Source: Escherichia coli
GTDB lineage: Bacteria; Pseudomonadota; Gammaproteobacteria; Enterobacterales; Enterobacteriaceae
Assembly (NCBI RefSeq): GCF_003018255.1
Contig: NZ_CP027440.1
Strand: one strand, 5' to 3'
DNA: 64,000 bases
Shown: positions 21,572-60,769 of the stretch, one piece after another
Numbering within the stretch: position 1 is the stretch's first letter
Layout: every line of letters begins with the position of its first letter
Made by a program: the position numbers and the translations under genes
Notes under the pieces: generated by a model
The model's database searches: none
What the model was told of the DNA's origin: nothing
The model's input: only the letters and a program-made list of their open reading frames with translations

Positions 21572-22900
21572 ATGTCCAGAATCAATAAGTTCGTACTTAC
21601 AGTCAGTCTGCTGATTTTTATCATGATTTCAGCAGTTGCCTGCGGGATCTACACTCAAATGGTAAAGGAACGGGTGTATAGCCTGAAACAGTCCGTTATT
21701 GATACTGCTTTTGCGGTGGCAAATATTGCTGAATATCGGCGTAGCGTGGCAATTGATCTTATCAACACGCTAAATCCCACGGAGGAACAGCTGTTGGTTG
21801 GCTTACGCACAGCTTACGCCGACTCGGTTTCACCCTCTTATTTGTACGATGTCGGTCCTTATCTGATTTCCAGTGACGAATGTATTCAGGTAAAGGAGTT
21901 CGAGAAAAATTATTGTGCAGATATTATGCAGGTTGTGAAGTATCGACATGTCAAAAATACAGGGTTTATCTCTTTTGATGGTAAAACCTTCGTCTATTAC
22001 CTCTATCCGGTAACTCACAATCGTAGTCTGATATTTTTGCTTGGTCTGGAACGTTTTTCTTTACTGTCAAAATCGCTGGCGATGGATAGCGAGAACCTGA
22101 TGTTCTCCCTGTTCAAGAACGGTAAATCGGTGACCGGTGATGAATATAACGCTAAAAACGCCATCTTCACTGTTTCGGAAGCGATGGAGCACTTCGCCTA
22201 TTTGCCGACCGGGTTGTACGTATTTGCTTATAAAAAAGACGTTTATTTTCAGGTATGTACATTGATTATTTTCTTTGCCGCATTGGTGGCAGTGATATCG
22301 GGTGCCAGTTGCCTCTATCTGGTACGCAGAGTGATTAATCGTGGTATTGTGGAGAAAGAAGCCATTATTAATAACCATTTTGAACGCGTACTGGATGGCG
22401 GGCTTTTCTTTTCGGCTGCCGATGTCAAAAAACTCTACAGTATGTATAACTCGGCATTCCTGGACGATCTGACCAAAGCGATGGGCAGAAAATCCTTTGA
22501 CGAAGATTTAAAAGCGCTGCCGGAAAAAGGCGGTTATTTGTGCCTGTTTGACGTCGATAAATTCAAAAACATTAACGACACCTTCGGTCATTTGCTGGGC
22601 GATGAAGTGTTGATGAAAGTGGTGAAAATCCTTAAATCACAGCTCCCCGTAGATAAAGGTAAAGTCTACCGCTTCGGCGGTGACGAATTTGCGGTGATTT
22701 ATACGGGTGGAACGCTGGAAGAGTTGCTATCGATTCTAAAAGAAATTGTTCATTTCCAGGTGGGAAGCATTAATTTAAGCACCAGTATCGGTGTAGCGCA
22801 TTCAAATGAATGTACTACCGTCGAACGCTTGAAAATGCTGGCGGATGAGCGACTGTATAAGAGTAAGAAAAACGGCAGGGCGCAGATTAGCTGGCAGTAG
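21572..22900 (+). CDS. dgcI: Membrane diguanylate cyclase (GGDEF domain)
   Basis: 442-aa ORF; GGDEF motif (RFGGDEF) near the C-terminus; 7-nt gap after pdeI. Confidence 0.85.
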
Positions 22901-22913
22901 AATTAGAATAGTG

Positions 22914-22941
22914 TTAGTACCCCTTAATCAAGGGGTACTAA
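22914..22941. repeat. 28-bp perfect stem-loop at the dgcI-distal edge of the two-gene cassette
   Basis: TTAGTACCCCTT-aatc-AAGGGGTACTAA: 12-bp perfect arms, 4-nt loop, no U-tract on either strand. Confidence 0.7.
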
Positions 22942-22969
22942 TGAATGTGGTAAATCATTTGCAAACATT

Positions 22970-23299
22970 TTACTTTGCAAAAACTTCCGGCCCTTTTATT
23001 GCCAATGTATTCAAAATACGTAATGCCGGGCCGCTCGGTTTTATTTCATTACGTTCCCATTTCGAGACACTTTCTTTTGACATTCCCATTGTATGTGCCA
23101 GCACGGATTGTGACATGCCGTATCGGGTGCGGATGGCTTTGATCTCTTCACCCGTCATTGATTTGACTTTGGCTATACGGGCGCTGACTTCACGAGCTTT
23201 GACCATGACGGCAATGGCATCAACTTCACTATCAGACATCAGGCCCAGTGCATTCAGTTCCTTTGCATCTTCCAGCATCATTTGTAATTTATCGCTCAT
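22970..23299 (-). CDS. HTH (XRE/MqsA-C-terminal-like) DNA-binding protein; candidate antitoxin and autorepressor
   Basis: 109-aa ORF; C-terminal HTH region (YGMSQSVLAHTMGMSKESVSKWERNEIKPSGPALRILNTLA); GAGGTG Shine-Dalgarno; ATG overlaps the upstream ORF's stop by 11 nt. Confidence 0.7.
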   Translation of the reverse strand: MSDKLQMMLEDAKELNALGLMSDSEVDAIAVMVKAREVSARIAKVKSMTGEEIKAIRTRYGMSQSVLAHTMGMSKESVSKWERNEIKPSGPALRILNTLAIKGPEVFAK

Positions 23300-23675
23300 T
23301 TTTCACCTCAATCAAAAAGCCAGTTTCGATCAAATCCTCTATTTGCTTATTGCTAAAGGCCAGAAATGCATTTGCCATTTTTTTGTAGGCCGCCAGTTCA
23401 TCATCTTCGATTTCTTTGGTTCCTTTACTGCTTAGACCACTCTTGGACCAACCATCATAAAAAAACACATGATTTGCTGATTTAAAAAAGATAATTGTTC
23501 TGGCTCCACCACTCTTTCCTTGTTGGAGGGGTAAACGTTTTTTGATGACACCGCTACCTAAATCAGCCTCCCATATGCCCTGAATCACTTCTTCAGCGGC
23601 AGCCATGAGAACTTTATCGTGAATACCAAGTTTTTTCGTGCTTTGGCTGAATCGTCTTGCCTTATACACACCCAT
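23289..23675 (-). CDS. RelE/ParE-superfamily-like toxin candidate (DUF1044/COG4737-type, GKSGGxR motif)
   Basis: 128-aa ORF; AGGA Shine-Dalgarno 7 nt upstream of the ATG; conserved DLGSGVIKKR...GKSGGARTIIFF core typical of this toxin family; AT-rich relative to flanking core genes. Confidence 0.65.
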   Translation of the reverse strand: MGVYKARRFSQSTKKLGIHDKVLMAAAEEVIQGIWEADLGSGVIKKRLPLQQGKSGGARTIIFFKSANHVFFYDGWSKSGLSSKGTKEIEDDELAAYKKMANAFLAFSNKQIEDLIETGFLIEVKNER

Positions 23676-23690
23676 ACATCCATCCTTGTG

Positions 23691-23727
23691 GTAATGTTTA
23701 CTATAGTAACCATTACGCTTATTTCAA
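23691..23727 (-). promoter_or_regulatory. Sigma70-like promoter (-35 TTGAAA, 16-nt spacer, -10 TATAGT) overlapped by a 26-bp palindromic operator
   Basis: Minus-strand read TTGAAA-N16-TATAGT; palindrome GTAATGTTTACTATAGTAACCATTAC (23691-23716) contains the -10 and sits about 15 nt upstream of the toxin ATG. Confidence 0.6.
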
Positions 23728-23900
23728 GTAATTGCGATCAAAACTTTAATTTGGTGTGAAAAAGTGAGAGTTGCCTCGAGTACGATTCATTTTTCTCGAT
23801 TTATGCGTCAGGGGATTTTGTGCGTAAGGGTAGGACATCGGGAAGGGTAGCAGAGGCAGATCGAAGAACAATATCCTTGTTAGATCTGCCTTAAGATTAA

Positions 23901-25226
23901 TTAAACCCGGCTACCCCACAAATCGTACTCATCGGCGTGCTCGACTTTCACACGCAGGATATCACCCGGCTTAACGTTGGTTTCACCATTGAGATAAACC
24001 GCGCCGTCGATTTCCGGTGCATCTGCCATGCTGCGACCAATCGCACCTTCTTCGTCCACTTCGTCGATAATCACCAGAATTTCACGGCCCACTTTCTCTT
24101 GCAGGCGCTCGGCGGAAATCTGCTGCTGCAACTGCATGAAACGGTTCCAGCGTTCTTCTTTCACTTCTTCCGGAACCTGGTCAGGCAGGGCATTGGCGTC
24201 TGCACCTTCAACCGGGCTGTATTTAAAGCAGCCAACGCGATCCAGACGTGCTTCTTTCAGGAAGTCGAGTAGCATCTGGAAATCTTCTTCCGTCTCGCCA
24301 GGGAAGCCGACAATAAAGGTTGAGCGTAGGGTCAGTTCCGGGCAGATTTCGCGCCACTGTTTGATGCGCGCGAGTTGGCGATCTACAGAACCCGGACGCT
24401 TCATCAGTTTGAGAATGCGCGGGCTGGCGTGCTGCAACGGAATGTCCAGATAGGGCAGGATTTTGCCTTCTGCCATCAGTGGGATGACGTCGTCCACATG
24501 CGGATAAGGGTAAACGTAGTGCAGACGTGTCCAGATCCCCAGTTTCGATAACTGTTCGCACAGGCTGACCATGCTGGTTTTTACCGGCTCGCCGTTGTGG
24601 AAGCCAGTACGATGTTTAACATCGACGCCATAGGCGGAAGTATCCTGCGAGATCACCAGAATCTCTTTAACGCCCGCATCAACCAGACGTTTCGCTTCAC
24701 TTAACACTTCGCCAATCGGACGGCTCACTAGGTCGCCGCGCATAGACGGAATAATGCAGAAGGTGCAGCGGTGATTACAGCCTTCAGAAATTTTCAGATA
24801 GGCATAATGACGCGGCGTCAGTTTCACACCTTGTTCTGGCACCAGGCTCAGGAATGGGTTGTGTTTCGGTTTTGGCACGTAGTGATGAACGTGCTCCAGA
24901 ACCTGCTCATAGCTATGAGGCCCGGTGATTTCCAGCACTTTCGGGTGGACTTCGCGGATCTGATCTTCTTTTGCCCCCAGACAACCGGTCACAATTACCT
25001 TGCCGTTTTCATTCAACGCTTCACCAATGGCTTCCAGTGATTCTTGTACCGCGCTGTCAATAAAGCCGCAGGTGTTGACGATCACCATGTCCGCATCGTC
25101 ATAGCTCGGTACCACGTCATAACCTTCAGTGCGTAGTTCGGTGAGAATACGCTCTGAATCGACAAGGTTTTTCGGGCAGCCAAGGGAAACAAAGCCGATT
25201 TTCGGCTGGGGAGTTACTTTGCTCAT
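23901..25226 (-). CDS. rimO: Ribosomal protein S12 methylthiotransferase (radical SAM)
   Basis: 441-aa ORF; N-terminal MTTase domain; radical-SAM motif CNHRCTFC; C-terminal TRAM domain. Confidence 0.9.
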
Positions 25227-59116: not shown

Positions 59117-60769
59117 TTACGCGCTCAACAGTTGCTTCATGTCTTCTTCAACAGTGGTGATAGAACGCAGGCCGAATTTCTCGTTCAGCACCGCCAGCAG
59201 GTCTGGTGTCAGGAAACCAGGTGCAGTCGGGCCGGTGACGATATTTTTCACACCCAGAGAAAGCAGCGTCAGCAGAATGACAATCGCTTTCTGTTCAAAC
59301 CAGGAGAGCACCAGCGACAGCGGCAGATCGTTGACTCCGCAGCCCAGTTTCTCTGCCAGCGTTACCGCCAGAATAATTGCTGAGTAAGCATCGTTACACT
59401 GACCAGCATCTACCAGACGCGGCAGACCTTCGATATCGCCAAACTCAAGTTTATTAAAGCGATATTTACCGCAAGCGAGGGTCAGGATCAGGCAGTCATC
59501 CGGCACGCTGGTGGCGAAATCGGTGAAGTAGTGACGCTCGCCGCGTGCGCCGTCACAGCCGCCAAGCAGGAAGATATGACGCAGTTTTTCACGGCTCACC
59601 AGATCAATCAGCGTATCGGCTGCGCCAAGCAGTGTCTGGCGACCAAAGCCCACGGTGATCAGGTGCGGAATTTCGCTGTACGGGAAGCCCGCCATCTGTT
59701 GCGCCTGGGCGATGACCGCAGAGAAATCTTCGCCATCCAGATGACGCACACCCGGCCAGCCAACGATGCTGCGGGTCCAGATACGATCGTCATAAGCGCC
59801 TACGGTTGGGTCGATGATGCAGTTCGAGGTCATCACGATGGGGCCAGGGAAACGAGCGAACTCCACTTGCTGATTCTGCCAGCCGCTGCCGTAGTTACCG
59901 ACCAGATGCTTGAATTTACGCAGCTCCGGGTAGCCATGCGCAGGCAGCATTTCACCGTGGGTGTAGACATTAACGCCCGTGCCTTCGGTCTGTTCCAGCA
60001 GGTTGTAGAGATCTTTGAGATCGTGACCGGAAATCAGAATGCATTTACCTGCCGTCGCTTTGACGTTGACCTGGGTTGGGGTCGGGTGACCGTATTTACT
60101 GGTTTCGCCTGCATCCAGAATGCTCATCACTTTGAAGTTCATCTGGCCGATTTCCATTGAACACTCAAGAAGCGCGTTCATATCGGCAGGCCAGGTCCCC
60201 AGCCACGCCATGATTTTATGGTACTGGGCATAAATATCGTTGTCGTATTGACCGAGAACATGCGCGTGTTCCATATAGGCCGCCGCACCTTTCAGGCCAT
60301 ACAGGCACAGTAGACGCAGGCCGAGAATGTTTTCGCCAATCGCCGCTTTATCTTTGTTAGGGGTAAATTCTGCTGCCTGACGTTGCAGCTCGCCGAGATC
60401 GTCGCTCACCAGTTGCAGGTCAGCCATCGGGTTATCGACGCGGGCGTTGGCATCTACAGCCAGGCATTGTGCTTTCAGCGCCTCGCGCAGGGCAATCGCT
60501 TCACGAGCGTAGCCGACAATACGCGGAGAATCGAAGTTAACGTTGGTCAGGGTTGAGAAAAAGGCACGTGGCGCAAAGCTGTCTACATCGTGGTTGATGA
60601 TGCCGTATTCACGTGCTTTCACTGCCCAGGCCGAAAGCCCTTGCAGCGCCGCGATGAGTAAATCCTGAAGGTCAGAGGTTTCCGCCGTTTTACCACACAT
60701 CCCCTGCGCGTATGAGCAGCCGTTTCCTGCCGGAGTACGGATAGTTTGTTCACATTGCACACAAAACAT
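59117..60769 (-). CDS. hcp: Hybrid-cluster protein (hydroxylamine reductase)
   Basis: N-terminal Cys cluster MFCVQCEQT...C; 550 aa. Confidence 0.9.

Follow-up and report, generated by a model that had tools for sequence, protein, structure and literature searches.

An 8-nt direct repeat flanking the dgcI-rimO toxin-antitoxin genes of Escherichia coli is very probably an accidental identity

Background

Among described toxin-antitoxin systems, HigB-2/HigA-2 of Vibrio cholerae (5JA8, 5JA9 and 5JAA) is the nearest to the gene pair treated here. As in that system, the toxin gene comes first, the two genes overlap and a palindrome, the predicted operator, lies over the promoter, and the C-terminal HTH domain of HigA-2 is matched by the antitoxin. 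The relationship is nevertheless remote. The toxin protein alone has no PDB match, and it took a profile built from 18 homologues to reach HigB-2 (5ja8/5ja9), with E=0.0017 and a match of about 45 residues that spans the conserved G-x-K-x-R...GKSGG-x-R core. The best PDB matches of the antitoxin are the P22 C2 repressor (9e-6) and HigA-2 (5jaa, 5.7e-4). The V. cholerae pair lies in the superintegron, whereas the pair described here is flanked by core genes of the E. coli chromosome.

The toxin-first order is also common to MqsR/MqsA of E. coli K-12, and the HTH region of the antitoxin resembles the C-terminal domain of MqsA (Pfam MqsA_antitoxin, E=5e-4; TIGR03830, E=1.8e-12). However, the antitoxin stays below the curated cut-offs of the MqsA-family models (20.6 vs 30 bits for PF15731 and 47.1 vs 61.8 bits for TIGR03830) as well as those of the NadS models, and the toxin belongs to PF06296 and not to the MqsR family. 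Moreover, the antitoxin harbors no cysteine in its 109 aa and therefore has no MqsA-type CxxC zinc-binding N-terminal domain. An assignment of the antitoxin to MqsA was rejected on these scores and on the lack of cysteines.

The surroundings of the two genes also call to mind the target-site duplications made by insertion sequences and transposons (9-bp in the case of IS1), the likeness being a short direct repeat, here of 8 nt, around accessory genes in a strain-variable region. Real IS1 insertions are found at this locus as well, and they look quite different from the arrangement described below.

Here, we analysed a stretch of 64,000 nucleotides of E. coli DNA (the window), in which the gene pair occupies the intergenic region between dgcI and rimO. 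The original prediction made for this DNA had drawn attention to two copies of the 8-nt word TGTGGTAA that bracket the two ORFs of a supposed cassette, and had left the choice between chance and a duplication or microhomology junction. The positions that it gave for the two copies are exact (Table 1). A literature search on this dgcI-rimO toxin-antitoxin locus returned nothing relevant.

Table 1. Features of the dgcI-rimO region, in window positions
Feature	Position	Strand	Description
dgcI (yliF)	21572..22900	+	Left core-genome flank
Long allele of the strain-variable dgcI-rimO intergenic segment	22901..23895		995 bp; alignment A1
Hairpin between the convergent dgcI and antitoxin genes	22914..22941		Perfect 12-bp stem
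Left copy of TGTGGTAA	22946-22953	+	16 nt past the antitoxin stop, between the 22914-22941 hairpin and that stop
Antitoxin gene	22970..23299	-	109 aa; C-terminal HTH_3 domain, E=1.9e-9; stop codon at 22970-22972
Toxin gene	23289..23675	-	128 aa; Pfam PF06296 ('RelE', HigB-2-like family), E=2.9e-32
Toxin Shine-Dalgarno	23686-23683	-	AGGA; immediately adjoins the right copy of TGTGGTAA
Right copy of TGTGGTAA	23687-23694	+	Abuts the toxin Shine-Dalgarno; reads TTAC then CACA on the coding strand
Predicted operator	23691..23716		Two tandem 11-bp mini-palindromes GTAA-N3-TTAC (23691-23701 and 23706-23716), central TATA
Predicted sigma-70 promoter	23700..23727	-	-35 TTGAAA (23727-23722), 16-nt spacer, -10 TATAGT (23705-23700)
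Orphan non-coding DNA, operon promoter to rimO hairpin	23732..23853		Imperfect 17-nt tandem repeat at 23800-23833
Hairpin just downstream of the rimO stop, within the long allele	23854..23891		-16.2 kcal/mol, z = -3.8
rimO (yliG)	23901..25226	-	Right core-genome flank

Results and discussion

A HigB-2-like toxin-antitoxin gene pair

The toxin matches PF06296 over its full length with 111.9 bits (cut-off 27), and the antitoxin matches HTH_3 with 37.8 bits (cut-off 23). The family PF06296, also called 'PF_RelE', has members named HigB-2, RelE or StbE; according to PMC11980606, they are toxins that cleave mRNA in a ribosome-dependent manner and are encoded ahead of the antitoxin. The two genes lie on the same strand, toxin first, with an 11-nt overlap, and this arrangement is the same in all related loci. 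Taken by its sequence, the pair is a distant HigB-2/HigA-2-like type II toxin-antitoxin module, i.e. a representative of a known family. Following the standard type II scheme, the antitoxin would neutralise the toxin, and free toxin would cleave mRNA on the ribosome; an mRNase activity of this particular toxin is suggested by analogy with its family. E. coli is the source of all named proteins in the toxin cluster at 90% identity, and about 21% of its genomes carry the toxin-antitoxin allele. Toxin-inactivating mutations next to an intact antitoxin gene are recurrent in these carriers, a pattern that is consistent with an active toxin but is no proof of one.

Promoter, operator and non-coding parts

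The predicted promoter of the operon (10/12 consensus matches in a consensus scan) has its -10 box at the centre of the palindrome at 23691-23716, an inverted repeat with 92-93% complementarity. Within the window, the tandem GTAA-N3-TTAC pattern is present only at this operator, and it is found at the equivalent position in related loci. An alignment of eight lineages (A7) shows that the operator core TTACTATAGTA and the outer TAC are invariant, and both the -35 region and the -10 box are conserved in Kluyvera, in UBA5654 and in the relative from SRR26188678. The HTH antitoxin, alone or complexed with the toxin, would bind the two GTAA-N3-TTAC sites over the -10 box, and this binding would lead to repression of its own operon. 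Operator binding, autoregulation and the position of the transcription start are presumed here.

The right copy of TGTGGTAA does overlap the operator palindrome, as the original prediction had stated, by 4 nt (GTAA). On the coding strand, its TTAC half is the outer operator half-site, and the copy as a whole lies between the -10 box and the Shine-Dalgarno, covering the predicted transcription start region. In A7, only the TAC of the motif is invariant, and the positions occupied by CACA read CATC, GGCA, GATA, GATC, CAGG, CACT or CGCT in the other lineages, so that the CACA half appears to be a variable 5'-UTR spacer just 5' of the Shine-Dalgarno. The right copy is present for functional reasons, as part of the promoter/operator region. 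The left copy lies in an E. coli-specific spacer: six other lineages show no conservation past the antitoxin stop, where each has its own unrelated hairpin. Nor does the left copy fall in any GTAA-N3-TTAC sub-site in a pattern scan of the window. The stretch over which the relatives resemble the window begins at the antitoxin stop (22970) and ends at the -35 region (about 23731). This conserved module thus includes the right copy but not the left one.

The hairpin at 22914-22941 has a folding energy of -18.7 to -24.4 kcal/mol (z = -3.3 to -4.4) and is likely a bidirectional transcript-end structure; no T-run follows it. At the other end of the segment, the hairpin at 23854-23891 replaces a different hairpin of the short allele described below, which in the K-12 spacer reaches -20.3 to -23.5 kcal/mol. 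An Rfam search of the non-coding parts gave no match at E <= 1. The DNA at 23732-23853 does not resemble the sequence upstream of the genes in any related locus. It was also considered as a remnant of a SUKH gene, which is found in the same position in UBA5654, and this was rejected, no tblastn or blastn similarity being detected.

Two alleles of the dgcI-rimO spacer

The long allele with the two ORFs is present in about 1,130 of the 5,425 complete E. coli genomes matching the region, and a short allele, consisting of a 46-bp hairpin spacer (TCATTATTCGCAGGCCGGACAAATGATTTTGCCCGGCCTGAATTAA), in 4,287 genomes including K-12 MG1655. The site can be regarded as biallelic because these two counts together cover essentially all genomes. 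According to alignment A1, the alleles diverge at 22900/22901 and rejoin at 23895/23896. At the point of divergence, dgcI ends in TAG when followed by the long allele and in TAA when followed by the short one, a difference in the third base of its stop codon; the right boundary lies 5 nt past the rimO stop. These outer boundaries are identical in the long alleles of O157:H7 TW14359, 1919D3, AB66 and EFF60. The copies of TGTGGTAA are located inside the variable segment, 45 bp from its left end and 201 bp from its right end.

From one allele to the other, the 995-bp intergenic region is exchanged for 46 unrelated bp, and because these are not a sub-sequence of the long allele, the short allele is not explained by a simple deletion. 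The long alleles differ among themselves by up to 1.4%, approximately the same as the flanking core genes, a level of divergence that fits a long residence in the species. Divergent variants of the short allele were considered as possible intermediates and rejected, since one has lost 20 bp and one carries a 7-bp tandem duplication, both within the short allele. The 46-bp spacer was also rejected as a dispersed repeat, since genomes have a single occurrence of it and the window has none. Finally, the rimO-proximal spacer of UBA5654, which was tried for polarising the alleles, is unrelated to both of them and uninformative.

The motif TGTGGTAA is absent from the 46-bp short allele, from the empty-site loci L001-L004 and L021, and from every non-E. 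coli locus fetched. The original prediction had proposed that a single copy at the empty site would support a duplication or microhomology junction; K-12 and 4,286 other genomes have none, and the boundaries of the variable DNA map elsewhere. Such a junction is refuted by both results, which the prediction itself had named as refuting outcomes.

The repeat does not exceed chance expectation

A third copy of TGTGGTAA is present in the window at 60690 on the - strand. Three copies compare with 1.61 expected, and at least three were obtained in 18 of 100 shuffles. We also examined dinucleotide-preserving shuffles of the two non-coding flanks, i.e. the 69 nt from dgcI to the antitoxin stop and the 225 nt from the toxin start to rimO, which share a word of at least 8 nt in 24.6% of cases (n=5,000). 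Similarly, exact 8-mer direct-repeat pairs number 15 in the 995-bp segment, where shuffles give 14.4 +/- 5.9. By the flank and segment shuffles alike, the repeat is neither longer nor rarer than chance predicts. The two copies are 741 bp apart, and the identity between them ends at 8 nt. The left copy is invariant in five long-allele E. coli sequences, and both copies are so across all long alleles sampled; this invariance carries little weight because strains share at least 98.6% identity over the whole segment. Chance, one of the options raised in the original prediction, is supported by the word sharing of the flanks (P = 0.25) and by the number of repeat pairs in the segment. The TGTGGTAA repeat is not a biological feature, and the pair very probably represents an accidental 8-nt identity of two unrelated AT-rich non-coding pieces, with no target-site duplication, insertion junction or excision scar involved.

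Alternative origins of the repeat

The insertion of a two-gene cassette between dgcI and rimO, with TGTGGTAA as its target-site duplication or as a microhomology junction, would account for the presence of copies on either side of both ORFs and for their length, 8 nt being typical of target-site duplications. It is nonetheless extremely improbable. In contrast to known target-site duplications, neither copy marks an edge of the variable DNA, which reaches well past each of them, and the empty site has no copy at all; the segment harbors neither a transposase or other mobility gene nor terminal inverted repeats, it is known from one locus and never from a second one, and the repeat itself is at chance level. 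Moreover, an element bounded at the right copy would leave out the promoter and operator found with the genes in all eight lineages. The cassette model is incompatible with this organisation because a junction at 23687-23694 would split the operon from its own promoter/operator. The suggestion that the operon has another functional site for the antitoxin at its 3' end, namely the left copy, which would act by looping or as a decoy and have a GTAA half-site in common with the operator, has next to no probability either. It draws on an imperfect 24-bp palindrome, GTAAATCATTTGCAAACATTTTAC (22950-22973, 79-80% complementary), which is opened by the left copy and, like the operator, starts with GTAA and ends with TTAC. 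However, AT-rich palindromes of this quality are common, both the GTAA-N3-TTAC unit and the core TTACTATAGTA are missing at the left copy, and this region has no counterpart in any other lineage; a second operator was rejected on the missing sub-site and the lack of conservation.

The repeat could also be a latent deletion route, through which recombination or replication slippage would remove the gene pair precisely, without being the cause of the existing polymorphism. Short direct repeats at this locus have indeed undergone slippage. One of the other chance repeats of the segment, the 9-mer ACCACTCTT, is found at 23436 and 23508; on the coding strand it reads AAGAGTGGT, which is translated as Lys-Ser-Gly in both copies. 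The 104-aa toxin variant P0013, present in E. coli assemblies that fall in 41 indexed blocks of the assembly collection, has lost the 72 bp between the copies of AAGAGTGGT in frame and keeps exactly one copy, as in microhomology-mediated deletion. This deletion is a positive control for repeat-mediated loss, and there is nothing comparable for TGTGGTAA: a synthetic excision junction, made of the outer parts of the long allele joined via one copy, was found in 0 of 5,426 complete genomes at >=80% coverage, and the short allele that does exist is a replacement by unrelated sequence. The frequency of slippage falls steeply with the distance between repeats, and the 741 bp that separate the two copies of TGTGGTAA count against this route, as do the 14 other 8-mer repeat pairs of the segment, which are equally eligible. 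A role of TGTGGTAA in excision is highly improbable, and we retain an accidental identity as the explanation of the repeat.

Relatives of the gene pair and residence at the locus

Relatives of the gene pair were identified in seven other lineages, and promoter and operator accompany the genes in all eight lineages examined. Relatives on plasmids of Xenorhabdus and Providencia have roughly 68-71% nucleotide identity. Chromosomal relatives are present in Kluyvera sichuanensis, K. georgiana, the Kluyvera-like assembly ERR3870190 and the MAG 'Enterobacteriaceae bacterium UBA5654', and run SRR26188678 contributes a further one on a short contig. In UBA5654, whose RimO has 96% amino acid identity to that of the window, the genes are arranged as rimO, SUKH gene, toxin, antitoxin, gsiD-gsiC-gsiB; the arrangement is bssR, toxin, antitoxin, gsiD-gsiC-gsiB in K. 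sichuanensis and PTS operon, toxin, antitoxin, gsiD-gsiC-gsiB-gsiA in both K. georgiana and ERR3870190. The pair thus abuts gsiD in these four genomes, and its other side is rimO or bssR in two of them. E. coli has bssR, rimO, toxin, antitoxin, dgcI, pdeI, gsiD-gsiC (assigned in part by blastp), with pdeI-dgcI interposed, and the orientation of the toxin-antitoxin genes is the same in all these neighbourhoods.

No sign of mobility was found in the segment. Its true ends have no terminal inverted or direct repeats, and no inverted repeats are found at the motif positions either; the only substantial ORFs between dgcI and rimO are those of the toxin and the antitoxin, with no mobility gene. Among complete E. 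coli genomes, the segment occurs at >=98.6% identity only at the dgcI-rimO site, and no true plasmid copy of high identity was found, the 4.9-Mb 'plasmid' records being mislabelled chromosomes. Copies elsewhere were also considered as a means of defining a mobile unit, and this was rejected on the lack of high-identity copies. In the distant plasmid homologues of Xenorhabdus and Providencia, the shared part spans no more than promoter to antitoxin stop. The word 'cassette' used in the original prediction is doubtful in view of the missing terminal repeats and mobility genes, of high-identity copies restricted to one locus, and of relatives in the same neighbourhood in other genera; the pair is probably not a recent insertion.

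As the simplest reading of these gene orders, we lean slightly towards the gene pair being an old resident of the gsi-rimO neighbourhood, with the K-12-type short allele as a secondary loss by spacer replacement. The preference is kept this weak because the short allele is a replacement and because other Escherichia species provide only a weak negative, a peptide scan of their representative genomes having given no match. For the direction of change, we infer loss rather than gain. A fuller scenario, to which we give about an even chance, is an ancient presence/absence polymorphism, in which a HigB-2-like pair has stood beside the gsi operon since before the split of Escherichia and Kluyvera and now segregates as two sharply distinct spacer alleles, the short one having arisen by replacement, with repeated decay of the toxin.

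Conclusions

Direct repeats of 8 nt around a block of genes are expected by chance in AT-rich intergenic DNA, at about 15 pairs per kb in the present case, and short bracketing repeats should not be taken for insertion scars before the empty site has been compared. Here, this comparison is decisive because thousands of genomes with the alternative allele exist. The dgcI-rimO locus would represent an ordinary, long-resident chromosomal type II toxin-antitoxin module with a well-conserved operator, rather than a recently inserted element.

Two alleles of the dgcI-rimO intergenic region

In a set of 5,425 complete E. coli genomes, the DNA between dgcI and rimO takes one of two sharply distinct forms, a long allele, which carries the toxin-antitoxin pair, and a short one, and no intermediates were seen. 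The spacer of the short allele is unrelated in sequence to the long allele, and the difference extends even to the stop codon of dgcI, whose last base makes it TAG in the long and TAA in the short form. Variants of the short allele are minor: a 7-bp tandem duplication (ATTCGCA) in strain STS63-1-E, and in 2015C-4136CT1 a 20-bp deletion through which one arm of the hairpin and the stop codon of dgcI are lost and the annotated dgcI gains two codons. A larger change occurs in strain STK78-E, which lacks pdeI, dgcI and the entire intergenic region and has an IS1 element in the interval from gsiD to rimO; this is an IS1-associated deletion of both c-di-GMP genes.

Features of the locus (L-numbers denote fetched loci, P-numbers toxin protein variants)
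Feature	Window	Other loci	Remarks
Long allele, with toxin-antitoxin pair	22901-23895		995 bp; about 21% of genomes
Short allele		L001 602-647	46 bp, own strong hairpin; about 79% of genomes
Short-allele variants		L003 about 600-655; L021 401-441	
IS1 in STK78-E		L004 1661-2358	
Predicted operator	23691-23716	equivalent position in L011-L020	
Orphan non-coding DNA	23732-23853		about 120 bp, between operon promoter and rimO-proximal hairpin
Imperfect 17-nt tandem repeat	23800-23833		inside orphan DNA
9-bp repeat copies	23436-23444, 23508-23516	deletion variant at L022/L023 701-1015	
Inactivated toxin genes		L006 689-1075; L010 1389-2218	P0016, P0024, P0025, P0034, P0052
gsiD-adjoining related pairs		L012 267-6381; L013 2333-6372; L014-L018 3205-8387	

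Non-coding elements of the long allele

The predicted operator consists of two 11-bp mini-palindromes (GTAA-N3-TTAC) in tandem, with the TATA of the -10 box between them. Its TTACTATAGTA is invariant in eight lineages, including plasmid-borne homologues of roughly 68-71% nucleotide identity. The orphan DNA has no match in Rfam, and no relatives of it were found outside E. coli; among long alleles its conservation is at least 98.6%.

A 1,198-bp contig of a “Collinsella sp.” MAG (JAIJJM010000872.1, locus L011) matches the dgcI/toxin-antitoxin segment of E. coli at 99% identity; it almost certainly comes from E. coli and was binned wrongly. The plasmid collection PLSDB holds 4-5 Mb records (NZ_CP134663.1, NZ_CP141089.1, NZ_OL790811.1 and NZ_OL790812.1) that are evidently mislabelled chromosomes and lead to spurious “plasmid” matches for chromosomal loci. 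The segment was also found on CP088669.1 (730 kb), which may be a chromosome fragment.

Decay of the toxin gene and proposed origin of the module

Among E. coli strains, inactivation of the toxin gene is recurrent: 1919D3 has a stop at codon 4, an IS1A insertion interrupts the gene in EFF60, and several further versions are truncated or frameshifted. The four annotated strains examined, TW14359, 1919D3, AB66 and EFF60, all share one antitoxin protein (WP_001280945.1). A 72-bp in-frame deletion takes out the toxin's conserved core (24 residues, GARTIIFFKSANHVFFYDGWSKSG). It is bounded exactly by copies of a 9-bp repeat, AAGAGTGGT, and one of the two is kept. The index of the assembly collection lists this variant in 41 blocks.

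Finally, related pairs, with toxins of 68-73% identity, directly adjoin gsiD-gsiC-gsiB in Kluyvera sichuanensis, K. georgiana, the Kluyvera-like assembly ERR3870190 and the MAG “Enterobacteriaceae bacterium UBA5654”; in two of these four the opposite side of the pair is occupied by rimO or bssR. This gsi/rimO/bssR setting is the same neighbourhood as in E. coli, suggesting that the toxin-antitoxin module is ancestral in the gsi-rimO neighbourhood and has since been lost from most E. coli.
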